Assembly (NCBI GenBank): GCA_965644315.1
Contig: CBFFRQ010000208.1
Span: forward strand, 1 to 58,519
Direction: 5' to 3'
Length of the DNA stretch: 58,519 bases
From: Caecitellus pseudoparvulus
Lineage: Eukaryota > Protista > Bigyra: Bicosoecida
Part shown: one piece after another, positions 38,867-56,564 of the stretch
How the letters are laid out: each line of letters opens with the position of its first letter
Numbering within the stretch: position 1 is the first letter of the stretch
Program-made: the position numbers and the translations under genes
Notes under the pieces: generated by a model
What the model was told of the DNA's origin: nothing
Databases searched by the model: none
What the model saw: only the letters and a program-made list of their open reading frames with translations

Positions 38867-39285
38867 CAAAAAAAAGGGATGGGTGGGTGTTTAGTGTAAA
38901 ACACCACCCCCCGGTAGATACATACGTAATGCGTGGCTAAAGCCACTATATTTAATGGTTCATTTTATAGTAATTTAATAGTCAATAAAATATATATTAT
39001 TTAAGGTATATTTAAAAACAAGAAATAGTAAATTATAGGAAATATAAAAAAGTAATAAGTTAAAACATTATTTCCTATTTCCTTAATTTCTCTTTTTTTT
39101 ATGGATTTTTAAATATTATTATAATTTTCTTAAAATAGACTTTGAGAAAGAAAATATAAGATATAGGAAAAGTCTCTCTTAATCGCATGTGTTATACTTT
39201 TAGTGAATGAGTAAGTAAATATCTCTCTTAATTGCGGTGTGTGTCCCCTTCAAGAACAATTTAAACGCAATATTAAAAAATAAAT
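38867..39285 (+). repeat. Left terminal inverted repeat (419 bp)
   Basis: Base-by-base reverse-complement match to 56146-56564 with no mismatch; begins CAAAAAAAAGGGATGGGTGGG. Confidence 0.98.
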
Positions 39286-39303
39286 TATGAGACTATAATA
39301 ATC

Positions 39304-39546
39304 ATGCAAAAAAAGAACCTATCTAAAAAGTACTTAACCATGGATTTATCTTTATTAGCTTTTGATATTGAAGAGCAAAAGGAGAACATACAAAACCTAA
39401 AGAAAGAACTAAAAGAACTTCAAGCTGAAATGAAAGAAAAATTACAATTGCTAAGTAATAGAATGAAAACAGAAAATAAACAAGAATTAAAAGTAAAAGA
39501 GAAGATTTATAAAATTCAAACAGAGGATACATTAATTGTTGAATAA
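39304..39546 (+). CDS. Viral hypothetical coiled-coil protein (80 aa)
   Basis: ATG preceded by TATAATAATC; K/E-rich heptad pattern. Confidence 0.6.
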   Translation: MQKKNLSKKYLTMDLSLLAFDIEEQKENIQNLKKELKELQAEMKEKLQLLSNRMKTENKQELKVKEKIYKIQTEDTLIVE

Positions 39547-39571
39547 AATTTTTATCTATGTATAATAATAT

Positions 39572-40369
39572 ATGGATAAAGTTATAAACTATTTTAATGA
39601 CTTTTTTTTAGGTAATCCAGCAAATACACAAACATTACAAACATCAACAATTACAAAAAAAGATATTTATCAAGTACCTATACCATGGGACGCTTACCAA
39701 TGTGCTGTAGCGTGCAAATTAGTATATGATAGCCCTTCAACACGTCCATTTATTACAAGTAATTTAGTTTATAATGAAACATTAAGTAATAATAAAATGG
39801 CTGTATTTGTTGATATATCAGAAACACCAAAAGCATTTATTGTATTTAGAGGGACACAAACAGACGTAATTGATTTTATTGATGATTTAAGTATTATTGC
39901 AGGAGGTAGTTTTTCATTAAATTTATTAATTAATACAAAGAGACTAAATAAAATGCTAAATACTTTAAATGAAGTAGGTATTCAAAACATATATTTTACG
40001 GGTCATTCTTTAGGAGGTTTTGAAGCTGTGTATGCTTCAAATGAATATGGTATTCCTGCAATTGTATATAATATTGGTGCATCACCAACACAAGAACTAA
40101 GTAAAAGTATAAGGGAATTTAAAAATAAAGTTTTAGGCATTCGTAATAGCTATAAAGATATTTTTGATAGTAGTATAATTAAATCGTACATTATGGAAGG
40201 TGATTTAATAGCTGAAACAAGTAAAGTTTTAATTCCAAACACAACAGTCTTAAAACCAAAACCAGCACCAAAAAATTTAATAGAAGCCCATTCAATTGAT
40301 TTTATTTTAAAAAGTGTAGCACCAACAAATATTGAATTATATTATAGTAAACCATCAATTGGTTTTTAA
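39572..40369 (+). CDS. Viral class-3 lipase / alpha-beta hydrolase
   Basis: IVFRGT oxyanion motif, YFTGHSLGG nucleophile elbow, GDLI acid and C-terminal AHSI histidine. Confidence 0.9.
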   Translation: MDKVINYFNDFFLGNPANTQTLQTSTITKKDIYQVPIPWDAYQCAVACKLVYDSPSTRPFITSNLVYNETLSNNKMAVFVDISETPKAFIVFRGTQTDVIDFIDDLSIIAGGSFSLNLLINTKRLNKMLNTLNEVGIQNIYFTGHSLGGFEAVYASNEYGIPAIVYNIGASPTQELSKSIREFKNKVLGIRNSYKDIFDSSIIKSYIMEGDLIAETSKVLIPNTTVLKPKPAPKNLIEAHSIDFILKSVAPTNIELYYSKPSIGF

Positions 40370-40400
40370 GAAAGATTTTTTTATGAAAGTAATATATAAT

Positions 40401-40700
40401 ATGAATAAACAATATGATTATGAAGATCCATTTAATGGAAAAGAACCAACAAGAAAAGAGTATGAAGAATATATTGATCATTTAAAAGAAGTAAATCAAA
40501 AGCGTATTGAATTAATTAAAAGTTGTAGTGATTATTATTTGGTACAACACTTAGATTTTTCAGAAGATTACCTATCATATGAAGAATTTATAGAATATGA
40601 AAAAGAAATTGAAAATGAAAAAGACAAGACACAAAAGGAAGCAACAAAAATGAAAATGGATAATGTACATAAGGAACTATTAATGGCTACATCAAATTAA
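40401..40700 (+). CDS. Viral hypothetical acidic protein
   Basis: ORF with ATG preceded by AATATATAAT, as for neighbouring genes. Confidence 0.6.
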   Translation: MNKQYDYEDPFNGKEPTRKEYEEYIDHLKEVNQKRIELIKSCSDYYLVQHLDFSEDYLSYEEFIEYEKEIENEKDKTQKEATKMKMDNVHKELLMATSN

Positions 40701-40798
40701 ATATTTTATAGACTAATTTTATATTCTGTAAAATGATAATTGAGTATTTTTTATTTTTAATTTATGAAAGAGTATTAGAATTTTTGAATTATATAAAA

Positions 40799-41227
40799 AT
40801 GAAATTTTCAGTCTTTCAGTGTTCAGAGTTAAAAAGATTGAAAGAAACTGAAACTAAGACTGAAAATAAGTTTGAAAATGTAAAAGATGATTTTGTTGAT
40901 ATTCAAACTAAGGAAAATGTTCCAGTTATTTCAAATATAGAAACCAAATATTATTATAAACCAAAAAGGGAATTAAAGCAAAGAAAGCAATTATCTGAGA
41001 AGAAAAAACAGCAATTAATAAATGCACGAAAGAAGGCACAAGAAACATATAGAAGGAGAAGAGAACAAAAAGCAAGATTGCAGGAAGAAGAGCGAATAAA
41101 AAAATATGTAAAAATTATTAAACCAGAGATAATAAAGGAGGTTGAACAACCAGTAAAAAATAAGAGTATAAATGATGATTACATAATAGAGGATCTTTTG
41201 AAACAAATGGAGGAAGAAAATTATTGA
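40799..41227 (+). CDS. Viral hypothetical basic/coiled-coil protein
   Basis: KPKR...LSEKKKQQLINARKKAQE basic helix. Start chosen at the ATG preceded by TTATATAAAA (alternative start 40733). Confidence 0.6.
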   Translation: MKFSVFQCSELKRLKETETKTENKFENVKDDFVDIQTKENVPVISNIETKYYYKPKRELKQRKQLSEKKKQQLINARKKAQETYRRRREQKARLQEEERIKKYVKIIKPEIIKEVEQPVKNKSINDDYIIEDLLKQMEEENY

Positions 41228-41261
41228 AAGTATAAATTAATATTTTATTAGTCTATATTAT

Positions 41262-43330
41262 ATGAATCCATTTAATTTGACAGATGAGCAAATTTATAAC
41301 ATGCAGGAAGAGTTGAATGAGGAAAGAAATACACAATTTGTAAATCTAGGCTTATTGAATTATACAACTGATTTATTAGTACCTCAAGAAGCAGAAGAAG
41401 AGGAAGATATAAATTTAGATGAAGCAATTACAAATGCCGATTTAATACTACATAACAAACAGTTCTACAATGAAGGATGGGGTACAACAGATGAATCATT
41501 TGAAGAAGCTTTTTTTAATGAGCAAAAAAAGAAGAAGAAATACAAAATAAATTATTTAGAAGTTTAGGATTAACACCAGAAACTTTAGAGTTAGATGAAG
41601 AACAAAAAGAATTAAAAAATATATTAAATTATATTGATGCTTTTGGAAAACGTCATAACCTTTCACAAGCTGAAGTATTAAATTTAAGATCAAAAGCTAC
41701 TGAATCATTTTTAAAGAACAAATTTAATCCTTCATTCATAGCACAACAACAACCAATAAATCAAATGCAACAAGAAATAAACCAAAAATTCAGTGGTGCT
41801 TCAGACCAGCCACCAGCACAACCACCAACAGAACCACCAGCAGAACCACCAGCAGAACCACAAGCACCAGCACAAGGGGGAGCAGGTGAGAGCAAAGAAG
41901 GAGCGGGAACTGCCCAAATGATAGACACTAGTGGGGGTATTCATACAGTAGATAAACCAACAACAGAAGCACCAGCACCAAGACGACCTGAACCAGTGGC
42001 GGATACAGGGGCGGGGGCAGTAGTTCCAAACCAAGCAGAGCTAAGAGCAAACCGACTTAAATTATTAGAAAGAGTTCAACAAAGAGGAGATGAAGTAAGA
42101 AGAGAAAACAAAGATAAAGAATACCAAGATTTAGCCGATAAGATAGCACGAGAATTTATAGAAGCAATAAAAGGTGTATCTGGTGTTGCAAAAACAAATA
42201 TGATAAATATAATAAACAAATTAGTTGAAAGATCAAGAAATACACTTAATACAACAGGAACAGACAAAGCAATAACAGCCGATGATGTAGATATTATTAC
42301 ACAAAGTAGCACATCAAAATCTGCCGAAGTATTTGAAGGAATATTAGAAGGTATACCAGAATATACAAAACTAAACTTAGAAGATAAAGTAATTGTAATT
42401 TCTAAAATAGATTTTAATAAAATAGAAGAACAAAAACAAAAAGCAAGAGCGGATATTAAGTATGGTACATTACCAGATGCACAAAGAAATGAGGTTTATT
42501 ATTTGTACCTTGGACAATTACTAACTCTTGGGAAAATTTCATTAGATAGTATTTTAAAGCAAACAGAAGAAACTCCAGAGAAACTAGGGCAAAAAATGTA
42601 TACTGCTAGTGTTAATGCTAAGAAAACCCCAAAGTACTTATCAGTTTTGTATGATATATTAAACAGGTACTTAGCTGACAATAAAATAACGACTCCAACA
42701 GGTGGGCATAAGACACAAATGGGTTATTATGGAAAACAAATTTTTGATTTAATTAAAGTTAATGCGGAAAAAGTACCAAGGGATGCAGGCGAGAAGGCGA
42801 ATGCATATGCTAAACGAGTAATTGGAATACTAGCTAACCCCGAAAGCGGAATATATACAACAAGAAGAAGACCAGAACCAGCAGATGCACCAGCCCCAGC
42901 AGACGCACCAACCCCAGCAGATGCAGGAGATGAAGTAAGAGAATTAACAGATGCAGAAGATGGACAACTAAATAGATTAATTGATACATTTGAAGTAAGT
43001 AAAATGGGTGGAGCAAATCCAGATGAATTTATTGGACAGGAAATAGATTTATTATTATCAGGCTCACCAAGTAGAGATATGAAAGCTTTAATAAAATCAA
43101 TGGGCATAACAGAAGATACAATGAAAGACATAATTAAACGTAAGGCATACTTTATTTCACCTGATACAAGAAAGGAATATGATACTGTTTCACAAGAAGC
43201 AAAAGAAGGAAAAATAGATAATATTGTAAAAAGTTATGCTGGTAGAATAGAAGGAGGAGGTGGAGGACAAGCCCAAGGACGCAGAACACAAGCAAGAAAG
43301 GGGCGAATTTTAAAAGGAAGAGGTCAATAA
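41262..43330 (+). CDS. Large viral hypothetical protein (about 689 aa) split by a -1 frameshift at the A7 run 41524-41530
   Basis: The frame of ORF 41765-43330 is open back to 41522 (EEEIQNKLFRSLGL...) and overlaps the end of ORF 41262-41567; one extra A fuses them. Pro/Ala/Glu-rich linkers and a basic C-terminus. Confidence 0.7.
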
Positions 43331-43351
43331 AAAAATCTAAATAAATAGTAT

Positions 43352-44077
43352 ATGACAGAATTTAAAGTTTATACATTTGAAGAAGATGACATAACCAAAG
43401 ATAAAAAATATAAAAGTTTAATTCATCCAATTATAGGAGAACATCCACGAATGATATTAATAGGGCCCAGTCAAGCAGGAAAAACTCAAATGATACATAA
43501 CATATTATGGAATTGGTGTAAAGATTATTACACGAAATCAGAAGATAGCAGAATTATTGTAATCAGTGGAACAGATACAACAATAAGACATATATCAAAA
43601 ATGGCAGACAAACTAAAGCTAGATGAGGAGCAATTATTAATTATGGATTTTTTAGATTTTGAAGAATTAAAGAGTATTTACAAAGGATTAAATCCAAAAG
43701 TTCCACATATTTTTATTTTTGATGATATGGCATATAACCATGAAATGAATACAAATCATAGAACAAATTTTTTATCTGAATTGTTTGCAAGTGGTAGACA
43801 TAAGAACACAGGATGCATAATAGCAACACAAAAGTATCATTTTTTAGGACGTGATGTAAGAATGCTTAATTCAACTTTAGTTTCTATTTATTGGAATTGC
43901 TCAGATGGTGAAATATGGAAAGTATATGATGATAATTTTTCACAATATATAAATACAGATGATTTCAAAGACCTTGTATATGATAATTTGAATGAAAAGT
44001 ATAGTTTTATTTTATTGAACAAGAAAACAGGGAAGATTTATAATAACAAAATGAAAGAAATATATAGTAAGTTTTAA
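43352..44077 (+). CDS. A32-like (FtsK/HerA) genome-packaging ATPase
   Basis: Walker A GPSQAGKT, Walker B FIFDD, and SGRH...IIATQ motif. Confidence 0.95.
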   Translation: MTEFKVYTFEEDDITKDKKYKSLIHPIIGEHPRMILIGPSQAGKTQMIHNILWNWCKDYYTKSEDSRIIVISGTDTTIRHISKMADKLKLDEEQLLIMDFLDFEELKSIYKGLNPKVPHIFIFDDMAYNHEMNTNHRTNFLSELFASGRHKNTGCIIATQKYHFLGRDVRMLNSTLVSIYWNCSDGEIWKVYDDNFSQYINTDDFKDLVYDNLNEKYSFILLNKKTGKIYNNKMKEIYSKF

Positions 44078-44123: not shown

Positions 44124-45452
44124 ATGGAAAAGAAAGATGAAATTTATCTATTAGGTGGTGTTTTGGATGGTGTAAGAACGAAAGCAAATAAACTTGTTAA
44201 TTCACGTTCAAGATTACAATATGATTTACAAGGAACACGAAGCGGATTTGGTAATTTAAATACTAATCTAAATGCTACAATTCAAACAGGCTCACATGTT
44301 CCACAAGCTGATACGCTATCATTAGATGGTGAATTTAAAGTTTCTGGAGGTCAAGCAGGTTCAAATGTAAAACTGTGTGGCGATATTTGCTCAGCTATTG
44401 AACAAATAAAAGTTTATGTAGGAGGTGCTTTAGTTGTAAATTTAAGCAAACATGCATATTTAGTAGCTATGATGAATAAAAAATTAAATATGAGTGCAGA
44501 AGAACTAGCAATTCATAACGTTAAGGCTCTTCAAAATGTTGTATTTGATGCAACAGGTGGATCAAGTTATAGTTTTTCAATTCCTATGTCTCTTTTTGGT
44601 TTAGATTTAAAGAAATTAATTCCTGTTGGCAACACTCCTATTAACATACAAATTACTCTTCAAAGTAAATTAGATATGTTATTTGTATCTGGTGGAACAG
44701 CTCCAACAGCACCAATAAAATATGAATTAAATAATGTAAAATTTAGTATGGAAGCATACCAATTAACAAATCTAGGTGCTCAACTGATGTTAAAAAAGGT
44801 TGATCCAACTTCAAATAGTTCAAGTATGAAAGGAATTGTAAATAGATTTTATGGTTATGATTTATCTTATCAAACCCTTCAACAAGCAACCACACATTCA
44901 CACCAATTTAATATTAAAAAGCGTGATATTATCAGCACACTTTTATTACCTGCTTATGTTACCATTCCCGCAGGAAGTTCTGATGCTAATGGATTTAATA
45001 CACTTAATACAGACCCAGTCAACGATTTTTTATGGACTACTAGCACAAATTTTAATTTTGTTTCAAATTATCGTATACAATTTACAGGAGAACCCTATGC
45101 AAATGTAAATGGTGCAAATGGTGAATCTCTATATACTGATCATTTTGAAGGAGTATTAAGAACCGCAAAACCAGAACTACACAGTAAGAGCTATGCTTCT
45201 GAATATTCAGATCAAATGAAAAGAAGTAATAATAAATGTCAAGTCCTTGGCGGTCTGTTCCTAAAAACACCAGAAGACAGCCAACATGCAACAGAAAATG
45301 GTTTTAATAGTTTAGTTGGTTCATCTGCTTTAGTAGTTGATTTTGATACATCTGCTGCACCTGCAAATTATGCAAATAAAAATTTAGTATGCTTAGTAAA
45401 ATTCAAAAGACAATTAGAACTAGCAGGTGGTGTAGCAAAAGTAGTTGAATAA
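44124..45452 (+). CDS. Major capsid protein (double jelly-roll, PLV-type)
   Basis: 442 aa, beta-rich, positioned between the ATPase and the penton. SAIEQIKVYVGGALV, FSIPMS, YELNNVKF and terminal LELAGGVAKV resemble PLV MCP patterns. Confidence 0.8.
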   Translation: MEKKDEIYLLGGVLDGVRTKANKLVNSRSRLQYDLQGTRSGFGNLNTNLNATIQTGSHVPQADTLSLDGEFKVSGGQAGSNVKLCGDICSAIEQIKVYVGGALVVNLSKHAYLVAMMNKKLNMSAEELAIHNVKALQNVVFDATGGSSYSFSIPMSLFGLDLKKLIPVGNTPINIQITLQSKLDMLFVSGGTAPTAPIKYELNNVKFSMEAYQLTNLGAQLMLKKVDPTSNSSSMKGIVNRFYGYDLSYQTLQQATTHSHQFNIKKRDIISTLLLPAYVTIPAGSSDANGFNTLNTDPVNDFLWTTSTNFNFVSNYRIQFTGEPYANVNGANGESLYTDHFEGVLRTAKPELHSKSYASEYSDQMKRSNNKCQVLGGLFLKTPEDSQHATENGFNSLVGSSALVVDFDTSAAPANYANKNLVCLVKFKRQLELAGGVAKVVE

Positions 45453-45533: not shown

Positions 45534-46376
45534 ATGAGCTTAATTGACATCAATAATACTTTAGAAGTTTATATTAATAGTGCAATTGACAAAAGACCAA
45601 GTGATACATCTTTTGAATGGACAACTGAATTTAATACTACACCATTAGTTTTATCAGGTGGTGATTATATCCACCGTCTTATTGTTCAATCTGCATCCGT
45701 CCCTAATACATTTCCACAATTTAACCCAATTGATAGAGCTACATTTTCTATTGAAATAGAAAATGGAGCAACAACAGAACACACTATAAGCGAAAATTTA
45801 GTTTTTTCATCTACTGAGCAATTTGCAACATATTTACAAACAACAATAAATAATGCTGGTGGTAATGTTTCAGTATCACAAGAACAATCAACATTAAAAT
45901 TAAAAATTGTGAATAATGATACTGATTATGTTAAATTTTCAACAGTTGGTAATTATGGTAAGTTTTGGAATAAAATAGGTTTTACACAAGAACAGTATAA
46001 TGATGGTGAAGCATTAAAAATTGATCCATCCGATAATATGGAAGGTTTAAATTATCCAAATTTAATTAGTACCAGTAAAGTTTTTATTTGTATGAAAAAT
46101 GGTATTTTAAATAATTCATTCTTTGGTTCAGGATTAAACAGGCTTAAGTATCCAGTACTATTAAGTTTAAATATAGAATCAGGAACAGGTACATACTCAA
46201 GTTATGTATCAGATGATGAAATATTCTTTAATCATGATTTATTAGAAAACAATCAAATTAACCAAATGGATTTTATTTTATTAGATGATGAATATCAAGA
46301 GGTCAAATTGAAAGGTGGTTCAGTCAAATTATCTTTAATAATTAAGCAATATAGAACAGCCCAAGAACATTATTAA
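45534..46376 (+). CDS. Minor capsid (penton) protein, single jelly-roll
   Basis: N-terminal VYINSAIDKR, SASVPNTF and C-terminal INQMDFILLDDEYQEVKLKGGSVKLSLII match the PLV/virophage penton pattern; adjacent to the MCP. Confidence 0.8.
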   Translation: MSLIDINNTLEVYINSAIDKRPSDTSFEWTTEFNTTPLVLSGGDYIHRLIVQSASVPNTFPQFNPIDRATFSIEIENGATTEHTISENLVFSSTEQFATYLQTTINNAGGNVSVSQEQSTLKLKIVNNDTDYVKFSTVGNYGKFWNKIGFTQEQYNDGEALKIDPSDNMEGLNYPNLISTSKVFICMKNGILNNSFFGSGLNRLKYPVLLSLNIESGTGTYSSYVSDDEIFFNHDLLENNQINQMDFILLDDEYQEVKLKGGSVKLSLIIKQYRTAQEHY

Positions 46377-46424: not shown

Positions 46425-48965
46425 ATGGACGATACAAGATTATCATATTCTTTAAATTTAAATGGTTCAGGTGTTATTGAATCAGTAATAGAAGGATTGG
46501 AGAATGCAGAGAACATAACATTTAAAAATGTAACTATTCAAAATAATTTAGAAGTAGATGGTGAAGAAATCATTAATGAAGTTGAAACATTCAAAGTAAA
46601 AGATGCAATTGTTGAATTTAATAATGCTTCACCTGCTGTAAATGCTGATACTGGTTTTACTTCAAAAGAAGTTATAGGAGGAAATACAAGATACAAAGGT
46701 TTAATATTCAAAAGTGGTCAAGATGTAGGTATTGTTTATAATAATGCTTCAGCAGAGCCATTAACAACATTAGAACAACCTTATGATTTAGGCACGGTAA
46801 GAGTGCGAGATGCAAACAGCCAAAACGAACCAATTACAAAGCAACAATTTGATAATAATACGGTTAAATTATCAGGTAATCAAGATATTTCAGGGGTTAA
46901 AACATTTAATACTGATACACATTTACACAAATCAAAGTTCATTAATCCAAGCACACAAGACACAGACAGAGCAATATATTCAGATGAAAACGGCGATTTG
47001 GTATTTTTAAATGAATCATCATCAGGAAGCCACACATTTTATACTATGCAGGGAGGAACAGAAACATTAATGCTACGAATTAACGCACAAACGAATCAAA
47101 TTGACTGTTTAAAAGGGCTTTCAATGAATAATAATAGATTGGTATCTGTTGGTTCTCCTTCACTTCCTGGAGATGCAGCAACAAAACAATATGTAGATGA
47201 TAATGCACCAACTGATTATGTAAATTTAACAACAAATCAAACTGTAGGGGGTGAAAAAACTTTCACAAATACCCTGATTACTGAACAAGATATACAAACT
47301 AATAAAATGATATTAATTAGGACTGACGGCAGTGAAGCAAACTATCTTGAGTCAGAACCAACAACAAATATAATGCGTTATGTTAATGGTAGTGGAAATA
47401 ATAGACATTCATTTTTTAATAATAATTCTGGAACTGTAATAAATACATTTAATATAAATTATAATAGCGTTCAATCATTACTACCTTTTAATATGTCAAA
47501 TAATATTCTTTATGGTCTTGCTGAGCCTGTAGATGACGATGAAGCAGCAACAAAAAAATATGTAGATGATAATATACCAACTGATTATGTAAATTTAACA
47601 ACAAATCAAAATGTAGGGGGTGAAAAAACTTTCACAAATAAAATGATACTTGAGAATACATCAGCAGGAATGCAAAGCTTATTACGTTTTGAAACTGGAA
47701 GACCTTGGGAATTTAGAACTAATAATGCAGGGGCAGGAACATCTTTAGAATTGTACTCAACAGCACCAGAAAAAGGATTTAAAATAACTACACTTACAGA
47801 AACTTCAGGAGACCAAGACATAGCCCAATTTTCAGAAAGTAGCGTTTCAATATATACACAACAAAATTTAAATGATAATGACATTTTAGATATTGATGAA
47901 GCACAAGTAAAAAGATTAACATTAATCAAACCTGATGATGGGAATAAAAGCGTGGCAAATATTAGAATGGTTGGAAATTATATAAGTTATGATAGTTTAA
48001 TAAATAGCTCATTTGGAGGTCACAGATTTTACGTAAAAGACGGAGCAAACGATGTTATGGCTCTTCAAATTACAAGAAATCATATTGATACTAATTATAA
48101 ATTAAATATGGGGTATAATAAAATAGAACAACTGGCGGAACCTACAGCAAATACAGATGCAGCAACAAAAAATTATGTTGATAATGCTGTTGCTACTGCT
48201 GGTTCTTTCAATACTGATATAAATATGAATGATAATAACATTCAAAATATTAATGAAGCAGAAGCAAAAAAATTAATATTAATCCGCCCTAGTGATAACA
48301 ATAAAAACGTTTCAAGCATATATATGGAGTCAAATTATATTAGATATGATAATTTAGTTAATTCAGGAGCTGCTGGACACCGTTTTTATACTTTTAATGG
48401 TTTTACAAATGATTTGGCTTTTAGAATCGCAAATTCATTTATAGAAAGCAATTTTGAATTAAGAATGGGAAACCAAAAAATAGAAGAATTAGCAGAACCA
48501 GTAGTAGGCTCAGACGCAGCAACAAAAAATTATGTTGATAATATTGCTCGATCTTACTCTGCTACGGTTACGAGTTTAAGTATGAGTTGTACTAATTTAC
48601 CTATATATTCTTCATATAATGTTGGTGCTTTTAATTTAACAAAGACAGGACATTATATGATTGATTATACTATTAATATAAAACAAAACGAACCGACATT
48701 AACTGATAGACATTTTACGCTAATTCTAACTGCTCCCGGGTCTGTTGGTAATCTATCAGCACCTGGTGGAGCAAGAGGAATTGATTTATCAAGGACTGGT
48801 ATGAGCAATTCATCTACGGCTACTGGTAGTATTAATCTAAAATGGATTGTTGAATATACCTCAACAGGAATTAAGCAACTTACAATGGATATAGGTTCAA
48901 GAAGTGGTAGTGGAACACCATTTGAATTTTATGGAAATGCTATAATATCTAGAGTAGTAGTATAA
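46425..48965 (+). CDS. Putative virion fibre/spike protein with repeated modules
   Basis: Four (D/E)AATKxYVD neck motifs and three NQxxxGxKTF motifs, typical of trimeric fibres/adhesins; directly follows the penton. Confidence 0.75.
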   Translation: MDDTRLSYSLNLNGSGVIESVIEGLENAENITFKNVTIQNNLEVDGEEIINEVETFKVKDAIVEFNNASPAVNADTGFTSKEVIGGNTRYKGLIFKSGQDVGIVYNNASAEPLTTLEQPYDLGTVRVRDANSQNEPITKQQFDNNTVKLSGNQDISGVKTFNTDTHLHKSKFINPSTQDTDRAIYSDENGDLVFLNESSSGSHTFYTMQGGTETLMLRINAQTNQIDCLKGLSMNNNRLVSVGSPSLPGDAATKQYVDDNAPTDYVNLTTNQTVGGEKTFTNTLITEQDIQTNKMILIRTDGSEANYLESEPTTNIMRYVNGSGNNRHSFFNNNSGTVINTFNINYNSVQSLLPFNMSNNILYGLAEPVDDDEAATKKYVDDNIPTDYVNLTTNQNVGGEKTFTNKMILENTSAGMQSLLRFETGRPWEFRTNNAGAGTSLELYSTAPEKGFKITTLTETSGDQDIAQFSESSVSIYTQQNLNDNDILDIDEAQVKRLTLIKPDDGNKSVANIRMVGNYISYDSLINSSFGGHRFYVKDGANDVMALQITRNHIDTNYKLNMGYNKIEQLAEPTANTDAATKNYVDNAVATAGSFNTDINMNDNNIQNINEAEAKKLILIRPSDNNKNVSSIYMESNYIRYDNLVNSGAAGHRFYTFNGFTNDLAFRIANSFIESNFELRMGNQKIEELAEPVVGSDAATKNYVDNIARSYSATVTSLSMSCTNLPIYSSYNVGAFNLTKTGHYMIDYTINIKQNEPTLTDRHFTLILTAPGSVGNLSAPGGARGIDLSRTGMSNSSTATGSINLKWIVEYTSTGIKQLTMDIGSRSGSGTPFEFYGNAIISRVVV
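47175..47640 (+). repeat. 97-bp direct repeat pair within the fibre gene (47175-47271 and 47544-47640)
   Basis: Four mismatches over 97 bp by manual alignment. Confidence 0.9.
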
Positions 48966-49002
48966 ATTTAAATATAAAATAAAATTTGTAGTATAAGTAT
49001 AT

Positions 49003-49287
49003 ATGATTCTAGATATAATACCATCAGCAAGAAAGGATAAAAGATTTACAGCTATATTTAAAGATGGTTCAAAAACTTCATTTGGACAAAAGGAAGGTAG
49101 CACATTTATTGACCACAAGGACAAAGAGAAAAGAAAGAATTATAGAGCCAGACATGAAAGAGATTTAGAAACTAAAGACCCAAAAAGAGCAGGATACTTA
49201 TCATATTATATTTTATGGGGTGATGAGACAAACTTAAAAGATGCAATGAAAGCATATAATAAGCAATTCTTCTTTAATAAAAAATGA
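49003..49287 (+). CDS. Tlr6F-like (DUF5754-like) small conserved viral protein
   Basis: S.RK.K.F.A.F.DG..T.FG......DHKD..KR..Y.ARH......P..AG.LS..ILW pattern known from NCLDVs, PLVs and virophages; family name recalled from memory. Confidence 0.7.
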   Translation: MILDIIPSARKDKRFTAIFKDGSKTSFGQKEGSTFIDHKDKEKRKNYRARHERDLETKDPKRAGYLSYYILWGDETNLKDAMKAYNKQFFFNKK

Positions 49288-49333: not shown

Positions 49334-49897
49334 ATGGAAATGGAAAATGCATTAATTTTAGGTGCTGGTTTGGTATCAATTGGTGCTAAAACCGCTTATT
49401 CATGTTTTGGAAAATCAAAAAAGAAGAAATGGTCTAAAATTAGATTTGGTGCTATTGTTATGAGTTGCATGACTGGAAAATCTACACTGGCAAACAAACT
49501 TAAAGCAGATTCAGGTGTCTATTTAATTGATGTTGGCCAATCTGTCGCTGTTGATGGTGATACAAACGCAGATATTAATTATTTAATGAAAGCTAAGGAA
49601 TATGTAGATAAAGTAAAAAAGGATTTGAAAGATTACAAACTAATTTTGATTTGTTCCTCTATTGGTGAAGCAAAGTATCTTGGTGTTGATGAATCAAACA
49701 TTGCTGTTCTGACACCTTCAAACTCGCTTTTTAAATCAATATGTGAAGGTCGTAATACTGCAAATGTAGCAGAAATGGAACGTAAAAGAATGGAACTAAT
49801 TAGTGCTTGTAGTGAGGACGTACTAAATATTTTTGATAGTTATGATACTCTTTATTCTGTCATTCGCACCACGTTCAAATTGCGTAATAAATTCTGA
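49334..49897 (+). CDS. Atypical P-loop (kinase-like) protein with N-terminal hydrophobic segment
   Basis: FGAIVMSCMTGKSTLANKL...YLIDV; N-terminal ALILGAGLVSIGA followed by KSKKKK. Confidence 0.6.
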   Translation: MEMENALILGAGLVSIGAKTAYSCFGKSKKKKWSKIRFGAIVMSCMTGKSTLANKLKADSGVYLIDVGQSVAVDGDTNADINYLMKAKEYVDKVKKDLKDYKLILICSSIGEAKYLGVDESNIAVLTPSNSLFKSICEGRNTANVAEMERKRMELISACSEDVLNIFDSYDTLYSVIRTTFKLRNKF

Positions 49898-49971: not shown

Positions 49972-50445
49972 TTATATTATCATTGTTATTTTTTTCATTT
50001 TAGTCCATTTATCAAAATCTAATTTATCTTGCCTTTCAATTCTCTTTCTTCTAGCTTCTCTATCCCTTCCTTTTCTCCTATATTTCTTTTTCAATCTTTC
50101 ATAAATATCTTTCCAATGTTCTAATGTAATTTCCTTTCTTAGTCTGTATGTGTATAGTCTGTTGTACTCTCTCCTAAAGTCTTTATCATCTTCTTCAGAT
50201 AATCGCTTAATTCTACATCTTATTAAATTACAATCACTCTTGTACTCATCTATTTTTACGCAATCATGATAGACATTAAATAAATGTTGTAAGTTCTCTT
50301 GTCTTGTTCTCAAACTCATATCAATTCTATCTTCTAATGGAGAATCTTTTACTTTATAAAGAATGTAATCAAACATATTCATACATGTTTCAAAGTCTTT
50401 TTTAAATTCTGTCATTGAATAAACAGTTTTTGAAAATTCTGTCAT
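49972..50445 (-). CDS. Viral hypothetical protein (157 aa)
   Basis: ORF with AATATATAA before the ATG; charged helical composition; duplicated MTEF at the N-terminus. Confidence 0.6.
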   Translation of the reverse strand: MTEFSKTVYSMTEFKKDFETCMNMFDYILYKVKDSPLEDRIDMSLRTRQENLQHLFNVYHDCVKIDEYKSDCNLIRCRIKRLSEEDDKDFRREYNRLYTYRLRKEITLEHWKDIYERLKKKYRRKGRDREARRKRIERQDKLDFDKWTKMKKITMII

Positions 50446-50465
50446 TTATATATTACTTATATAAT

Positions 50466-50645
50466 ATGATTTCAAGATCAAAGCAAAGGAGAAAACACAA
50501 TGGCATCTGGTATTCCATTATGACGAAAGCCATTCAAGAAAAAAGAGAAAAAATCATTGAACAGAATACAAAAGATCTCATTGAAACTTTTGGAATAAAA
50601 ATAATTATTGATGTATTGGATGATCAAAATAAAATGAAAGAATAG
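50466..50645 (+). CDS. Viral hypothetical protein (59 aa)
   Basis: ATG preceded by TTATATAAT; divergent from the 50445 gene with only 20 bp between the starts; followed by a hairpin. Confidence 0.5.
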   Translation: MISRSKQRRKHNGIWYSIMTKAIQEKREKIIEQNTKDLIETFGIKIIIDVLDDQNKMKE

Positions 50646-50651
50646 TACTTG

Positions 50652-50684
50652 AAACAAAATATAAATAATTATGTTTTGCTTCTT
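50652..50684. terminator. Hairpin between convergent genes (copy 2)
   Basis: 33-bp near-identical copy of 49925-49957; one A>G change gives a U-G pair. Confidence 0.6.
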
Positions 50685-50700
50685 GAAATAATAAATTGAG

Positions 50701-51009
50701 TTATTTTTCTGATTCACCAATAAGTTTTAATCTCTCATTAATTGCATCATTAATTTTTTCAAATCCTGATTTAGTAAACTTATAAACAAGTGATACTCCA
50801 ATATCTGGAAAATTTAGTATTACATTATAGCTTGCTGAATCTACCTCTACACAGCTCTTAAAATCATATGCATGAACGTTAGTTATAAATAAGGGAGTTG
50901 TGAATGTTAGAATTAATTCTTTATCTTCAAATCTGATAGATGTGTTCTGTCTGGGACAAGTCAATAGCTTTCCATTTAAAGTACAATATCTCGCATTAAC
51001 AATTTTCAT
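50701..51009 (-). CDS. Viral hypothetical protein (102 aa)
   Basis: Beta-rich ORF preceded by the shared AAATNACTTAAA motif. Confidence 0.6.
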   Translation of the reverse strand: MKIVNARYCTLNGKLLTCPRQNTSIRFEDKELILTFTTPLFITNVHAYDFKSCVEVDSASYNVILNFPDIGVSLVYKFTKSGFEKINDAINERLKLIGESEK

Positions 51010-51051: not shown

Positions 51052-51068
51052 TATTAATTAATTATATA

Positions 51069-52097
51069 ATGAGCAAAATAAAAGAGTTAATATCTGAATT
51101 GGGAATTGATGAGACTTTTACTAAACCACAACCTAAAGAAACTCAGTTTACAAAAGTTAAAGGGGTAATCTATCCTGAAGAAGATTATAATTTTCAAGCT
51201 GATTTATTAGAGCTACCAAAGACCAAAGAAGGATTTAAATATTTATTAGTTGTTGTTGATTTATGGACTAATGAATTTGATATTGAACCACTAAAAACTA
51301 AAAGACCAAATACTGTTTTAGGTGCATTTAAAAAGATGATTAAACGAAAACATATTAATTTACCAGAAGCAAGTATAAGAACAGATGGAGGAGGAGAGTT
51401 TAAAGGTGATTTTGCCAAATTTCTATTTGATGAATCAATTTTAAAAAAAACAGCAATGAAAGGAAGACACCAGCAAATGGCAAATGTGGAAAGATTAAAT
51501 AAAACACTTGGAAGACTATTTAATGGATACATGAACAAAAAAGAAGAAGAAACTAATAAACCTTATAGAGAATGGACAGATATTTTATCTCAGGTAAGAA
51601 CTAAATTAAACAAAATAAGAAAAGTTGAACCAAACAAATTTAAATTTGCAAAAATTAAGATGATCTCTCCAAAATTTAAAATAGGTGATCTTGTATATTA
51701 TAAGCTGACACCATCTCAGGCCGAAGATTCATTAGGAAATCCCGTTCAAGGAGGATTTAGAACAGGAGATAGAAGATTTAGTAAGAAAGCTAGAAAAATT
51801 AAACAAATACTGGCATATAAAGGAAATGTTCCAGTACGATATCAATTAAATTATTTACCAAATGTATCATTTGCAGAATCAGAACTTAAACTAGCCAGTG
51901 GTGAAGAAACATTTGAAGTCAGAGAAATAATAGATGATAGGAGAGGACAATATAAAGTATGGTGGAAAGGTTTTCCTAAGAAAAATGCAACTTGGGAAAA
52001 CAAAATAAGAATTAAAAAACAAGTTCCAGATATAGTAAAGGAATATGAAGAAAAAAGAAGAATCAATCCAAAAAGTAAATTGTTTGTGAGCTTTTAA
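51069..52097 (+). CDS. Retroviral-type (rve) DDE integrase with C-terminal chromodomain
   Basis: FQADLLEL...YLLVVVDLWT, IRTDGGGEF and ANVERLNKTL (D-D-E); KFKIGDLV; chromodomain FEVREIID...YKVWWKGFP...ATWE. Confidence 0.95.
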   Translation: MSKIKELISELGIDETFTKPQPKETQFTKVKGVIYPEEDYNFQADLLELPKTKEGFKYLLVVVDLWTNEFDIEPLKTKRPNTVLGAFKKMIKRKHINLPEASIRTDGGGEFKGDFAKFLFDESILKKTAMKGRHQQMANVERLNKTLGRLFNGYMNKKEEETNKPYREWTDILSQVRTKLNKIRKVEPNKFKFAKIKMISPKFKIGDLVYYKLTPSQAEDSLGNPVQGGFRTGDRRFSKKARKIKQILAYKGNVPVRYQLNYLPNVSFAESELKLASGEETFEVREIIDDRRGQYKVWWKGFPKKNATWENKIRIKKQVPDIVKEYEEKRRINPKSKLFVSF

Positions 52098-53301
52098 TAT
52101 CTATTGTCTTATTGTGGTACTTATGATCCTGACAAATAAACTTTGTTATTACTTCATCATGATTCTTTTTACATATGAAACCATCAATATATATCCTTAC
52201 TACATCATCAAGAATTGGAGCTATTAAATTTGACATCTTAGCTCTACAAGTGGCAGGTAGAAAATATCCCATTCTTGCAGTTGTATATAAGAATATACGC
52301 TCTCTTTTTACTGTATAATACACACGTTCACCTTTCTTGTTTACATAAGACTTACTAAGAATTGGTAAAATATTTTTTTGTTCCTCTTCGGTTTTGCTTT
52401 GAATACTTGATAGTTTTCTATAAATTGGCCGATGTTTAATTTTTTGATATCCAAACATATTATTTAACATAAACTTAATAAGAGGGTTCTTTGGTAATTT
52501 ATCATTTGCTTTCATTAGTATATCTTGATACCATCCAAAAATAATATGTGAATCTACTAATGTATCATTATCATATATTAAAGCATTTGGTTTACCATCC
52601 TGTATAATTTCCCATTTAAGATTTAGGCCGACCCAATCACGAAAAAATTTCAGTTTATTCAATGTAAAATGATCATAATAATTTTTCTTAGAAAAGCCAA
52701 TAAGAAATTTTGCTCTTGGATCCGATGAAACAACTTTAATATGATAATATCCATATTCAAACTTTTCGGGTGTCTCTGTTAATGTTTCAAATCTTCCTCT
52801 TTTTACTGGAAACTTAAAATTTCTTTTTCTACATCCATAAGTCATTGAATAAAATTTCTTTTGATCATAAGCATATACTTTACCTTTGTATGGTGTACCT
52901 GCAATTAAACCTGAATCGTATGATTGATCCATAAATTTATATTCTTCATATGTCATATGTTCATAGGATTTCAAATTCTTCTTATCTTTGCGTGTATTGC
53001 TCAGTAAAGTATTCATTAGTGAGGTATTACATCCATCCTTTTTAAAGAATCTTAGATCCAGTCCTTTAAATAACATTCTTTTAGGATTTCGTGTACTTGG
53101 TATATTGGATAAGTATTTTTCTAATTCATTCGAATATTCTTGAATCTTTTCATAATACTCTATGAGTCCGTTTTCATCTGCATCTATTCCAAAGCTCTTT
53201 AACATCTCATACCCATTTGCTTTTTTATAGCTCTTCTTTACCTTTCCTCCATCATATGAAAAATAAGTTCTTGATACTGAGTCTTTATAATATACTATCA
53301 T
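52063..53301 (-). CDS. Short, divergent family-B DNA polymerase (pPolB-related)
   Basis: Motif A VYAYDQKKFYS, motif B IKFMLNNMFG, motif C-like VVRIYIDGF; only 412 aa. Confidence 0.72.
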   Translation of the reverse strand: MIVYYKDSVSRTYFSYDGGKVKKSYKKANGYEMLKSFGIDADENGLIEYYEKIQEYSNELEKYLSNIPSTRNPKRMLFKGLDLRFFKKDGCNTSLMNTLLSNTRKDKKNLKSYEHMTYEEYKFMDQSYDSGLIAGTPYKGKVYAYDQKKFYSMTYGCRKRNFKFPVKRGRFETLTETPEKFEYGYYHIKVVSSDPRAKFLIGFSKKNYYDHFTLNKLKFFRDWVGLNLKWEIIQDGKPNALIYDNDTLVDSHIIFGWYQDILMKANDKLPKNPLIKFMLNNMFGYQKIKHRPIYRKLSSIQSKTEEEQKNILPILSKSYVNKKGERVYYTVKRERIFLYTTARMGYFLPATCRAKMSNLIAPILDDVVRIYIDGFICKKNHDEVITKFICQDHKYHNKTIDIKSSQTIYFLD

Positions 53302-53310
53302 ATATTATAA

Positions 53311-53337
53311 AATACTAATCTTATCTTTAAGTCATTT
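53311..53337 (-). promoter_or_regulatory. Shared upstream motif, copy before PolB
   Basis: Minus strand AAATGACTTAAAGATAAGATTAGTATT, then TTATAATAT-ATG. Confidence 0.6.
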
Positions 53338-53344
53338 TATTAAT

Positions 53345-53689
53345 TTATTCTTCCACTAACCATGAAATAGTTAATGATCTTACAGATTGAAACTTTGATT
53401 GTACTTTTACCTTACCATTTAGGTACTCATCTAAATTATCTAATGTTTCGGCAATAGTTGATCCATACCCTTTAATATTCATAATGCCATCTTTACGAAG
53501 TCCAAGTACAACAAGTTCATCAACATCATATTTTTTATCTATCTTTGGGACAATATGACCATATAGTTCTTTGATGGTATCAAAATTTATTTCTTCTCCA
53601 TCCTTTGCTTCAATATACATATCATGTTGAGTATGTCCTCCTACCTTCTCTTCATTTCTTCTTACAATATACTTATTCATATTTACCAT
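53345..53689 (-). CDS. Viral hypothetical protein (114 aa) between helicase and PolB
   Basis: Clean ORF with its own copy of the shared upstream motif. Confidence 0.7.
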   Translation of the reverse strand: MVNMNKYIVRRNEEKVGGHTQHDMYIEAKDGEEINFDTIKELYGHIVPKIDKKYDVDELVVLGLRKDGIMNIKGYGSTIAETLDNLDEYLNGKVKVQSKFQSVRSLTISWLVEE

Positions 53690-53704
53690 ATCTATTATAT
53701 CGTA

Positions 53705-53731
53705 AATACGTAATTTATCCTTAGGTCATTT
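53705..53731 (-). promoter_or_regulatory. Shared upstream motif, copy before ORF 53689
   Basis: Minus strand AAATGACCTAAGGATAAATTACGTATT...TATAATAGAT-ATG. Confidence 0.6.
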
Positions 53732-53733
53732 AA

Positions 53734-55437
53734 TTAAAAAATTCCTAAATTATCATTTTCTTTAGTTATTAATTTTCCGTTCTTACTTGCTTTTGTTGCT
53801 TTCTTTTTGTATTCTTTAATTTCCTTTTCTGTTTTCTCTTTCTTTGCTTTTGCTTTGGCTTCCTTTTCTTTCTTGAATATTTTCTTGTTTTCAGATAATT
53901 TAACTTTTTTTGGTTTTGATTTTTTTGATTCTACTGTTATTGGTTTTGGTTTCTTCCCTTCTAAAATTGACATAAACTCTTTGAACTTTTCAGGATGTTT
54001 TGCATACAAAACTTTAATATAATCCATGTCATCAACTGATACCTCTTCTTCTGGTGCTTCATCATCTTCTATTTCTGGGTCATACCATCTTTTACTTATA
54101 AATATTTTGCGTAATGTTTCAACAGGTACAATAAATTTTCTCTTTGTTGAACCATTTACAGATACAGTAGTTTTAATAATACCTATCTTTTTTAAATCTT
54201 TATGTAATCTATGAAGGGTCATTTTAAATTTTGCGTTCGTATTGTATTCATCCAATAATTGCTTGCATTCTATATCCATATCAGCATTATTAAATATAAA
54301 TTCATCTTTGATATACTTGTATAAAGGAGGAAGAGCAGATATAATTTTTTCATCCCTTGTTCTTGAATTTGGCATAATATCAAAATTAAAATCTTTGTTT
54401 TCTTCATAAAGCTTTCTCATATGATTAAAATATGCAGGTATTACCCCCTTACAATTCATAGCCTTAATGACACTTTGGAAATACTTAAAATCACCTTTAC
54501 GATGGTCTGATACATCGGGGCATATATACCGCTCTTTGTTTGATTGACTCAAATTAATTGATCCTTCAATATTTGTCGTTATAATTATGTTAAATGTATT
54601 TGTTTGAGTGTATCCTACACTGTACATATCACGGCAATCAAATTTATCTTCAGTTATTAATCCTTTCAGTTTATCTTGTATAAGTAAATTTCCTCTTAGT
54701 TCTGGTAGCTCATCAATATTTACTAATACAACCCCTTCTAATGGTTTTGTGTACTTTGTTATAGTTTCGGTTGAGGATGTTTTAAGCATTCTTTCGCCAA
54801 GCACACGATCTAAGAAGTTTAAGTATATTCCTTTTCCTGTTCTCTCTTCTGATAACATAAAGATTGCTTTTCGCACCTTTACACCAGCAATTGAAAAAGC
54901 AAAAAATAAACGTAAATATTCAAACATAGCAATATTTCCCCCACATAGTACTTCCTTAATATGATTATCAATAACTCCAATTTCTTTTAAAAAATCTTTA
55001 TCTTTTATGTCTTTACATTCACTTAAATCAAAAGGTAAAGGTTTAACCATATTTAAATATTTTTGAGTTAAGGCTTTACCCTTAATATTTCTTGTAATGG
55101 ATACAATATCATCATCTGTATCTGGAAATATACCATATTGTACATTATTGGAACAATCACAAAATTCAGAACTTACCATATAATCAAACAAATTAAATTT
55201 TGTTTGTCTATTTGATTTTAAATTGTTCTCTTCAATATAATCTTGATTAGTTAAATCTTTTGGGATATATTGTCTTAAGTCTTTTTGCTTGAAGTTATCA
55301 TATTTCCCAGTTTGCACATTCTTAAAAAAATAACTATCTGTAGTCTTAAAAAAGTATTTTTGCACATACTGTTTGACATCTTCTATTTTGTTTTCATTAA
55401 GTAAATTCTTAATTGTCATTACACTAAATACGACCAT
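53734..55437 (-). CDS. Superfamily-3 (D5/NrS-1-like) helicase
   Basis: Walker A variant FMLSEERTGKG, Walker B LVNIDE, KLKGLIT and motif C FNIIITTN; lysine-rich tail. Confidence 0.88.
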   Translation of the reverse strand: MVVFSVMTIKNLLNENKIEDVKQYVQKYFFKTTDSYFFKNVQTGKYDNFKQKDLRQYIPKDLTNQDYIEENNLKSNRQTKFNLFDYMVSSEFCDCSNNVQYGIFPDTDDDIVSITRNIKGKALTQKYLNMVKPLPFDLSECKDIKDKDFLKEIGVIDNHIKEVLCGGNIAMFEYLRLFFAFSIAGVKVRKAIFMLSEERTGKGIYLNFLDRVLGERMLKTSSTETITKYTKPLEGVVLVNIDELPELRGNLLIQDKLKGLITEDKFDCRDMYSVGYTQTNTFNIIITTNIEGSINLSQSNKERYICPDVSDHRKGDFKYFQSVIKAMNCKGVIPAYFNHMRKLYEENKDFNFDIMPNSRTRDEKIISALPPLYKYIKDEFIFNNADMDIECKQLLDEYNTNAKFKMTLHRLHKDLKKIGIIKTTVSVNGSTKRKFIVPVETLRKIFISKRWYDPEIEDDEAPEEEVSVDDMDYIKVLYAKHPEKFKEFMSILEGKKPKPITVESKKSKPKKVKLSENKKIFKKEKEAKAKAKKEKTEKEIKEYKKKATKASKNGKLITKENDNLGIF

Positions 55438-55453
55438 TTGCTATTATAATTAC

Positions 55454-55480
55454 AATACGAAATTTATCTTTAAGTAATTT
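55454..55480 (-). promoter_or_regulatory. Shared upstream motif, copy before helicase
   Basis: Minus strand AAATTACTTAAAGATAAATTTCGTATT...TATAATAGCAA-ATG. Confidence 0.6.
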
Positions 55481-55569
55481 TTTTATTTTTTAAATTCTCC
55501 TCATAATTATTATGAAGATAATTCTATAAAACTCAAAGGGGGAAAACACTAAACCCCTATACTATACTC

Positions 55570-55959
55570 TTATACTTTATTTTTTAGTATTGCGTTCATG
55601 TATCTACTACGTGAATTTTTAGTTCCACTTTTCATATGTCTACTAATATACTCATGTATAATGAACCATAACCAATTAAATTGATCATCAGTTAAGCAAT
55701 TATATCCATAAAAATGCTTTTTCTTTTCTAACTTAAACGCTACAAATGAAAAATTGTCTTTACTCACACGATGTTCACCATATGTTGTATTAAATTCATT
55801 CCTTTCATCATATAAATTAATATTTTCACTTTGTTGAAAATAATCATTTAGTAAATCTGAAGATAAAACTTTTCTTAAATTGTAATAAAGGTCTATATTT
55901 AACTTAATATGATTTAAATATTCTTCATTACTTTCTTTTTTATGAGTAAAATATAACAT
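55570..55959 (-). CDS. Viral hypothetical protein (129 aa)
   Basis: Clean ORF adjacent to the right TIR; no recognised motif. Confidence 0.6.
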   Translation of the reverse strand: MLYFTHKKESNEEYLNHIKLNIDLYYNLRKVLSSDLLNDYFQQSENINLYDERNEFNTTYGEHRVSKDNFSFVAFKLEKKKHFYGYNCLTDDQFNWLWFIIHEYISRHMKSGTKNSRSRYMNAILKNKV

Positions 55960-56145
55960 TATGTGTATATAAAAATCTTCATTTTTTAGGTCTTCTACAT
56001 CTTAAATTTCAATAATAAAATTCCTTACAAAAGATTTACTACTACTAAATGTTAGTTCCTTTTTATAGTATGATTTTCTATTTTTCATAGAAATTTTCGG
56101 TTTCATACTCATATATATTACTAATACATAATTCACTTTTATGTT

Positions 56146-56564
56146 ATTTATTTTTTAATATTGCGTTTAAATTGTTCTTGAAGGGGACACACACCGCAAT
56201 TAAGAGAGATATTTACTTACTCATTCACTAAAAGTATAACACATGCGATTAAGAGAGACTTTTCCTATATCTTATATTTTCTTTCTCAAAGTCTATTTTA
56301 AGAAAATTATAATAATATTTAAAAATCCATAAAAAAAAGAGAAATTAAGGAAATAGGAAATAATGTTTTAACTTATTACTTTTTTATATTTCCTATAATT
56401 TACTATTTCTTGTTTTTAAATATACCTTAAATAATATATATTTTATTGACTATTAAATTACTATAAAATGAACCATTAAATATAGTGGCTTTAGCCACGC
56501 ATTACGTATGTATCTACCGGGGGGTGGTGTTTTACACTAAACACCCACCCATCCCTTTTTTTTG
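56146..56564 (-). repeat. Right terminal inverted repeat (419 bp)
   Basis: Exact reverse complement of 38867-39285. Confidence 0.98.

Follow-up and report, generated by a model that had tools for sequence, protein, structure and literature searches.

A polinton-like virus in Caecitellus pseudoparvulus with a short mavirus-type polymerase and a likely stand-alone terminal protein

What kind of virus is lodged in contig CBFFRQ010000208.1 of the Caecitellus pseudoparvulus assembly GCA_965644315.1, and how might such an element prime the copying of its DNA? The 58,519 nucleotides analysed (the whole stretch, referred to here as the window) contain a genuine endogenous viral element of 17.7 kb at positions 38867-56564. 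The element can with good probability be explained as an endogenous polinton-like virus (PLV), with a double jelly-roll capsid, an ATPase, an integrase and no detected protease, and as one whose linear genome is likely copied by a short polymerase of the mavirus type together with a separate terminal protein (TP). A broader proposal, to which we give slightly better than even chances, is that a widespread branch of the mavirus-type cassette, serving virophage-type and PLV-type capsids alike, has gone back to two-gene priming, with a free TP of about 110 aa and a polymerase of about 400 aa devoid of the vOTU domain; it would be found here in a PLV with a perhaps undescribed capsid family and several copies in marine protists. 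The new part is the split primer with its vOTU-less polymerase, and the mosaic gene set is one more example of a known pattern.

The short polymerase and the gene upstream of it

The family B DNA polymerase of the element, of the protein-primed kind (pPolB), is encoded at 52063-53301 on the minus strand and belongs, at 412 aa, to the short mavirus type. Its predicted model (predicted local distance difference test, pLDDT, 93) has mavirus pPolB as best structural match (E 3e-21), followed by matches at E 1e-18 and 9e-11. Motifs A, B and C are retained, with D146, K276 and D373 invariant in 31 aligned rows; the first Asp of motif C is absent, as has been noted for mavirus (PMC11161782). The second-best match, a short pPolB of the mavirus type from a giant-virus record, is a BFVD entry of 339 aa annotated as Harvfovirus (A0A3G5A8K3).

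Long relatives of this polymerase (581-655 aa) have an N-terminal domain of about 105 aa and an NDC..HY, vOTU-like Cys/His pair. The window pPolB is without the first ~230 residues of these proteins, which comprise the terminal-protein and vOTU-like domains, and the alignment of short with long polymerases begins at residue 3 of the former and only at about residue 235 of the latter. Directly upstream of most short polymerases is a gene of 94-145 aa, represented in the window by a 114-aa gene at 53345-53689 (minus strand). In an alignment of 26 such upstream genes, Tyr89 is the only invariant column. Judged from the sequence pattern, it would precede the last strand, with a Gly nearby, and such a placement has been described for linking residues, which are Ser or Tyr between helix 2 and the last strand (PMC11161782).

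A profile of 24 upstream genes, from which the window row and that of its relative L007 had been removed, was searched against 353 targets (L numbers denote the comparison loci). It recovers the window 114-aa gene at E 4e-17 and also matches the N-termini of long polymerases, at residues 7-106 of L017 and 11-107 of L005 (E 9e-7 and 2e-5), the next match being at E 0.028. Comparison with hhalign gave a probability of 90.5 using N-termini only, from an alignment that included a few unrelated rows, and of 48 using clean full-length profiles.

The scans had yielded 58 loci, or 55 after the removal of three duplicates (L003, L027 and L034). Among these, 28 are split, 7 are fused, 5 have a short polymerase without detected partner and 15 are cut on the 5' side; this census gives the spread of the layouts and not their frequency, because short forms made up the query, the profile itself includes 25 of the 28 split loci as rows and near-identical loci occur in the set. 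The vOTU motif is present in the polymerases of all seven long forms and of none of the 28 split loci. At three loci (L014:1179-1535, L015:5121-5477 and L044:75-410), a terminal-protein-like gene lies on the strand opposite the polymerase. A quick version of the pPolB tree places some short forms among long ones and does not resolve a single origin of the split.

These comparisons make the 114-aa gene a likely homologue of the D1 domain of fused pPolBs, by way of metagenomic long polymerases and at moderate scores, and it is likely a stand-alone terminal protein, that is, a putative primer. In mavirus, the domain order of pPolB is TP-vOTU-PALM, and a fused TP is described for all eukaryotic pPolBs except those of adenovirids and one coral polinton, which keep the vOTU domain; priming in integrating viruses and removal of the TP before integration are called open in the same source (PMC11161782). 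The window polymerase accordingly differs from the 617-aa mavirus enzyme in having neither TP nor vOTU. Adenovirids and the coral polinton resemble the window in encoding the TP apart from the polymerase (Krupovic et al. 2024, PMC11161782), but their polymerases keep an inactive or active vOTU domain, whereas that of the window is without the vOTU region and is of the exonuclease-reduced mavirus type. The split layout was not found in the literature searched, which included the main text of PMC13215967, PMC12721341 and 10.64898/2026.10.13.758929, and the scope of which did not extend to subscription papers and most supplements.

In the mechanism proposed, the terminal protein would use Tyr89 to attach to the first nucleotide of the element at its A-rich ends, and the superfamily 3 (SF3) helicase would unwind the DNA for the exonuclease-deficient polymerase. 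The vOTU protease would have become dispensable, and been lost, because the primer is already separate. The chromodomain integrase would insert copies into host chromosomes, and the block of integrase, polymerase and primer would shift between capsid modules as a cassette.

The capsid module and the missing protease

The 442-aa protein encoded at 44124-45452 (plus strand) is, by its predicted structure, a major capsid protein (MCP) with a double jelly-roll fold, of a small, divergent family. It has two close relatives at 57-58% and 17 matches among 1.84 billion representative proteins; the close relatives and 14 of the 17 matches (22-30% identity, 362-443 aa) were aligned, and two long proteins with several incomplete matches each were excluded. 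The model (pLDDT 83.8) matched Vp54 of Paramecium bursaria chlorella virus 1 (PBCV-1) at E 1.6e-15 in a structure search, and in a BFVD search its top three matches were unnamed proteins of 400-449 aa, with the best named virophage MCPs at ranks 21 and 35. By phmmer, the 442-aa protein has no significant similarity to the MCP-like proteins of 594-618 aa in the comparison loci, and there was no sequence match in PDB (single or profile), Pfam, NCBIfam or PHROG, and no match in IMG/VR scans with the MCP, the ATPase and one distant MCP. The family is perhaps undescribed, yet it may already be named among the MCP profiles of 10.64898/2026.06.19.733378. Within the MCP gene, a stretch of about 120 nt (44935-45056) is replaced by other sequence of similar length in two of the sequencing runs described below (X9 and X11), and this forms a variable capsid region.

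A 280-aa ORF (45534-46376, plus strand) follows the MCP gene both here and in L007, with 32-34% identity between the two; it has no family match, and none to two other candidates, and is a probable minor capsid (penton) protein on position and conservation. The A32-like packaging ATPase (43352-44077, plus strand) matches Pox_A32 at E 7.7e-6. A Tlr6F gene (49003-49287, plus strand) was detected as DUF5754 at E 2.5e-15, a family equated with Tlr6f in PMC12220804. No maturation protease was detected in the six frames of the element, where a profile built on three protease-like ORFs of related loci gave a best E of 0.044, nor was there a Pfam protease match; the same profile recovers the proteases of L005 and L017 at E 6.5e-22 and 1.2e-18.

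The divergent double jelly-roll MCP, the A32-like ATPase, Tlr6F, the lack of a detected protease and a size within 14-40 kb are all features of a PLV, and the capsid module follows the PLV layout of PMC4642659. The virophage-type MCP and Ulp1-like maturation protease expected of virophages (Virophaviricetes) were not found. An earlier note on this DNA, made from the sequence alone, had described a 442-aa non-virophage MCP with no protease beside it, and the model, the BFVD ranks and the null result of the protease profile agree. Of the folding checks that it proposed for every ORF, those reported here, for the MCP and pPolB, identify a double jelly-roll and a mavirus-type polymerase, respectively. 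It had also assigned an SF3 helicase, pPolB, chromodomain integrase and lipase, all four of which are borne out by Pfam matches and by the comparison of the pPolB model with mavirus. The lipase has to be withdrawn from the mavirus signature in which the note had placed it, as lipase and Tlr6F are listed as common PLV genes and lipase is general to PLVs and virophages (PMC4642659).

Replication genes, relatives and cassette exchange

Besides pPolB and the 114-aa gene, the replication and integration module contains an rve integrase with a C-terminal chromodomain, identified by Pfam (51069-52097, plus strand), and an SF3 helicase of the DUF5906 type (53734-55437, minus strand; Pfam E 8.5e-10, PHROG E 4e-20). 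The element has the pPolB, RVE integrase and terminal inverted repeats (TIRs) of Polintons/Mavericks (Polintoviricetes), without their TP-vOTU-Exo-Palm polymerase, maturation protease and 5-6-bp target-site duplication (TSD). It has the mavirus-type pPolB, DUF5906 helicase, RVE-chromodomain integrase and TIRs of pMVRE group 1, and its gene set equals that of the group (PMC13215967). As described by Wei et al. (2026, PMC13215967), pMVRE group 1 shares with the window a palm-retaining mavirus-type pPolB, a DUF5906 SF3 helicase, an RVE-chromodomain integrase, TIRs and an MCP incongruent with pPolB; unlike the reading given here, the main text of that paper mentions neither a terminal protein nor vOTU.

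Other known systems are similar in part. The endogenous PLVs of Halocafeteria seosinensis (Haro et al., 10.64898/2026.07.28.741278) are likewise low in GC, bounded by TIRs and protease-less, and have a stand-alone MCP cluster together with RVE and pPolB clusters common with virophages; they average 23.6 kb in a host of 47% GC, compared with 17.7 kb in DNA of 62.5% GC for the window element. Mavirus and the endogenous mavirus-like elements (EMALEs) of Cafeteria burkhardae (PMC8547959, PMC10945749) also combine SF3, pPolB and rve in an AT-rich TIR element within a GC-rich protist genome, but they have the virophage MCP and protease undetected in the window element, and EMALEs carry TSDs of 1-9 bp (PMC8547959). 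The PLVs with a Polinton gene configuration of Bellas and Sommaruga (2021, PMC7805220) share pPolB, RVE, MCP, minor capsid protein and ATPase with the window, as well as a divergent MCP; that source counts 28 viruses of this make-up, which fall into at least 8 clusters. Module swaps are reported as common (PMC7805220, PMC13215967, 10.64898/2026.07.28.741278, 10.64898/2026.10.13.758929), module reassociation is described throughout the group (10.64898/2026.10.13.758929), and pDNAPs flanking the mavirus-type ones are described in PLVs (PMC12220804).

The locus with the same gene set and the same MCP family as the window is L007 (13,962 nt of a 17,988-nt contig). Identity between the two falls from 85% for the integrase, 77% for the 114-aa gene and 72% for the polymerase to 39% for the ATPase, 32% for the penton protein, 31% for the lipase and 25% for the MCP; the helicases have no BLAST match, and DNA similarity is mostly confined to a 2.8-kb block (79%). 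This gradient suggests cassette exchange within the lineage, though rate differences may explain part of it. The L007 helicase is a different one but ends in the same residues as the window helicase, and the capsid block of L007 is inverted relative to its replication block (L007:549-2318 and 6812-13962).

In other loci the cassette adjoins 594-618-aa capsid-like genes and proteases (L005, L017 and L056), a protease and an ATPase (L001 and L035), or, in L004, where no protease was detected, an unrelated gene of capsid size (455 aa). The MCPs of the comparison loci were not named by PDB or Pfam searches. Beside the short pPolB of L010, three adjacent ORFs of 385, 359 and 551 aa (L010:862-4890) have what we take to be a Trimcap-like three-MCP layout, with one weak Capsid_N match (E 0.03).

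Separate phylogenies had been proposed as a check. In an integrase tree of 17 rows, the window falls in a 14-row clade (100/100) with three protease-bearing loci and L004. A single clade of five protease-bearing loci is rejected in the approximately unbiased (AU) test (p-AU 2.9e-70, for a group chosen after seeing the integrase tree), and a single clade of three PLV-type integrases is not (p-AU 0.41), which would be compatible with one transfer into PLVs or with several. The ATPase tree, with 8 rows and long branches, groups only the window and L007. Because the trees are unrooted, the direction of transfer is not readable from them.

Limits and integrity of the element

In the GC profile of the window, values are 24-34% from 39.0 to 56.0 kb and 56-67% outside; the element averages 28.3% GC and the remainder of the window 62.5%. 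The TIR arms, at 38867-39285 (plus strand) and 56146-56564 (minus strand), are 419 nt each and 100% complementary, and 19 ORFs occupy 92-93% of the interior. The GC step and the complementarity of the arms thus confirm an AT-rich element with mismatch-free repeats in GC-rich DNA, as previously claimed, apart from a small correction of the arm length. The outermost C/G pair is probably host, because empty-site loose ends retain C38867 in three of four runs and because the end of another copy meets different host DNA behind 56563. The likely true ends are then 38868 and 56563, with arms of 418 nt, the left one starting with eight A followed by GGG.

Parts of 35000-44000 are contained in 20 runs from 12 studies, of which 8 were examined, all as contigs. 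Runs X1/X2 and X3/X4 are two samples each filed twice and may be the same source as the window; runs X5, X8, X9 and X11 hold relatives of the element at roughly 88-99%. The left flank continues behind 38865-38867 into non-window sequence in three of four runs (X1, X5 and X8), and the right flank is preceded by non-window sequence in three of four other runs (X2, X4 and X9). Because each flank continues differently in other copies, the two probably stem from different sites. No exact TSD of 2-10 nt was found with three end positions tried, and this may reflect joined loci rather than a property of the integrase. The left and right ends of the locus likely derive from separate insertions that either recombination or the assembler brought together.

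Whether it was the assembler that merged the left junction of one copy with the right junction of a near-identical copy is a serious question, and we rate this origin of the locus a little short of even. It would account for the missing TSD and for the flanks that continue differently, each in three of four runs, and variant contigs, truncated copies and a probable homopolymer slip at 52050 all exist; however, ectopic recombination between copies, or a deletion at insertion, would look identical, and both flanks look multi-copy, so that the loose ends may derive from paralogous sites. Other host DNA lies behind 56562, 56563 and 56570 in X9, a sign of additional insertions and of an element end at 56563. 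The proposal of a recent insertion stands for the family, which was likely recently active given the identical arms and the other insertion flanks in X9, and not for the locus, which is no clean single insertion.

The description of the ORFs as essentially intact has two exceptions. In X1-X5 and X8, one contig per run has an extra A behind 52050. X1, X2 and X5 contain this form alone, while its share of the summed depth is about half in X8 and about 5% in both X3 and X4. This one-base difference, in a homopolymer in the integrase tail, is probably an assembly slip. It touches the last dozen integrase residues and leaves core and chromodomain unaffected, and the L007 integrase ends at the matching point. 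The second exception is a frame break near the A-run at 41524-41530, which splits the gene upstream of the ATPase, a single ORF in L007. No indel at 41524-41530 was seen among the rows listed, and the break may be real. With a slippery-type heptamer at the A-run, programmed -1 frameshifting was one candidate explanation; it is not favoured, given a weak downstream fold (z -1.9, with 11 of 200 shuffles as good) and the continuous ORF of L007.

Several further observations concern other copies. The left flank at about 38549-38866 resembles a multi-copy host repeat: numerous loose ends fall at 38548-38549, and the summed depth is high in all four runs. It has no second copy in the window. Loose ends at 50224 and 55776 in X2 link the element to a CCCTAA repeat, which we presume to be telomere-like, and to GC-rich DNA; these are truncated copies, one of them probably at a chromosome end. 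Joints omitting 39444-43991 and 47568-48998 (X8) and 55489-56147 (X9) suggest internally deleted or variant copies, the joint at 39444-43991 having only 21 letters on its short side. A loose end of X9 at 41872 has what we take to be the look of a template-switch cDNA adapter, and this run, tagged 'DNA?', may be cDNA or amplified material.

Transcription and lifestyle

No recognised transcription genes were found in the element, and it likely relies either on the host nucleus or on a giant virus that infects the same cell. By analogy with related systems, the giant virus may be very slightly the more probable of the two. The TCTA motif of Cafeteria roenbergensis virus (CroV) and mavirus occurs in 3 of 19 upstream regions against a shuffle mean of 3.1, and a TCTA promoter was rejected on this lack of enrichment. 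In 11 of 18 genes a TATAA is found no more than 20 nt from the start, against a shuffle mean of 4.2 (p about 1e-4; one of four patterns tried, and chosen after looking); the pattern is weak in L007 (6 of 14, p 0.054). None of the runs is listed as RNA. The contigs of X11, a run guessed to be RNA, roughly track the limits of genes and reach their greatest depth over the MCP, but no weight is placed on this.

An autonomous, nucleus-replicating virus, or a self-synthesising element of the Polinton type, would need no giant virus, and this lifestyle is a tenable one that we hold at somewhat less than even. The element has polymerase, helicase, integrase and capsid genes of its own, the TATAA enrichment is compatible with host polymerase II, and TsV-N1 is a precedent; on the other side, AT-rich motifs fit giant-virus transcription equally well, the TATAA pattern was picked post hoc and is weak in L007, and most characterised PLVs and mavirus-type elements rely on giant viruses. 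Reactivation and protection have been shown for type 4 EMALEs (PMC10945749), and it is only by analogy with such systems that the reactivation and antiviral defence proposed in the earlier note might extend to the window element.

Primer, accessory partner or recombinant

Several points weigh against the account of a PLV with a split primer. Five of the seven long polymerases are not matched by the upstream-gene profile, and the equation of the 114-aa protein with the D1/TP domain runs through metagenomic long polymerases and a published domain order, not through mavirus directly. The comparison loci were assigned to capsid types provisionally, from size and an adjacent protease, and this copy may be inactivated by the frame break near 41524.

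The 114-aa gene could instead encode an accessory partner of the polymerase, unrelated to terminal proteins, with the short polymerase primed in another manner. This is unlikely, although the full-length profiles reached a probability of only 48, the gene has no PDB, Pfam or Atlas match and five short polymerases have no profile-detected partner gene. The upstream-gene profile matches specifically, and exactly, the region that the short polymerase has lost, the distribution of the vOTU motif separates split from long polymerases without exception, and the Tyr is invariant.

A recent and distinctive recombinant between virophage and PLV, serving antiviral defence, is improbable. In its favour, the polymerase is of mavirus type, the integrases of protease-bearing elements are 41-46% identical to that of the window within the same fully supported clade, the integrase-polymerase block at 72-85% to L007 and the capsid block at 25-39% point to a fairly recent exchange, and two relatives of the module come from contigs named GVMAG, but the nearest exchange partner, L007, has the same MCP family and no virophage capsid, the pairing is already published as common, a donor cannot be named from unrooted trees, and the defence rests on analogy, with TCTA not enriched. 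What survives of the recombinant lineage in the earlier note is the union of a mavirus-type module with a protease-less non-virophage capsid module; it is not special, as the cassette stands beside several capsid types and such swaps have been published.

Remaining genes and host flanks

The remaining genes of the left half are all on the plus strand. A coiled-coil ORF of 80 aa with no function assigned (39304-39546) is followed by an alpha/beta-hydrolase lipase with a GHSLG motif (39572-40369; Pfam Lipase_3 E 0.009 and Mbeg1-like E 5e-5), whose inferred role is likely in entry, and by two ORFs of 105 and 164 aa with no function assigned (40383-41227). The broken gene before the ATPase spans 41262-43330 and consists of a 101-aa ORF and an open frame from 41522; the frame upstream of the ATG at 41765 aligns to residues 117-156 of the single 488-aa L007 ORF (E 0.006), and a search for full-length relatives found none. 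Downstream of the penton gene are an 846-aa fibre-like protein (46425-48965; PHROG tail-fibre and head-decoration matches to E 9e-18) and, past Tlr6F, a P-loop-like ORF of 187 aa with no function assigned (49334-49897; weak AAA_24, E 0.004). On the minus strand are two ORFs of 157 and 102 aa (49972-51009), which also accompany the integrase in L007 (54% and 58%), and a 129-aa ORF with no function assigned (55570-55959). There was no Rfam match in 36000-58519.

Among the long ORFs of eukaryotic type in the flanks are an EF-hand-bearing kinase and a major facilitator superfamily (MFS) transporter. They suggest a protist host, as kinases of this kind are not known from animals. A host C2H2 zinc-finger ORF with 87-nt repeats (56621-57742) starts 57 nt past the right arm, and the region upstream of it has a different 5' sequence in other copies. 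A host ORF of 1169 aa (26888-30397, minus strand) contains a long tandem repeat of 48 nt (16 residues).

Implications

Close relatives of the element occur in runs of several organisms and in one marine metagenome, and a cultured host may therefore exist for giant-virus induction tests. If the split-primer reading is true, the layout departs from the 2024 scheme, in which the TP is fused outside adenovirids and one coral polinton. The full loss of vOTU in the split forms fits the idea that vOTU serves to cut the primer off. The two small proteins, of 114 and 412 aa, would then be a minimal eukaryotic protein-priming pair, testable in vitro.

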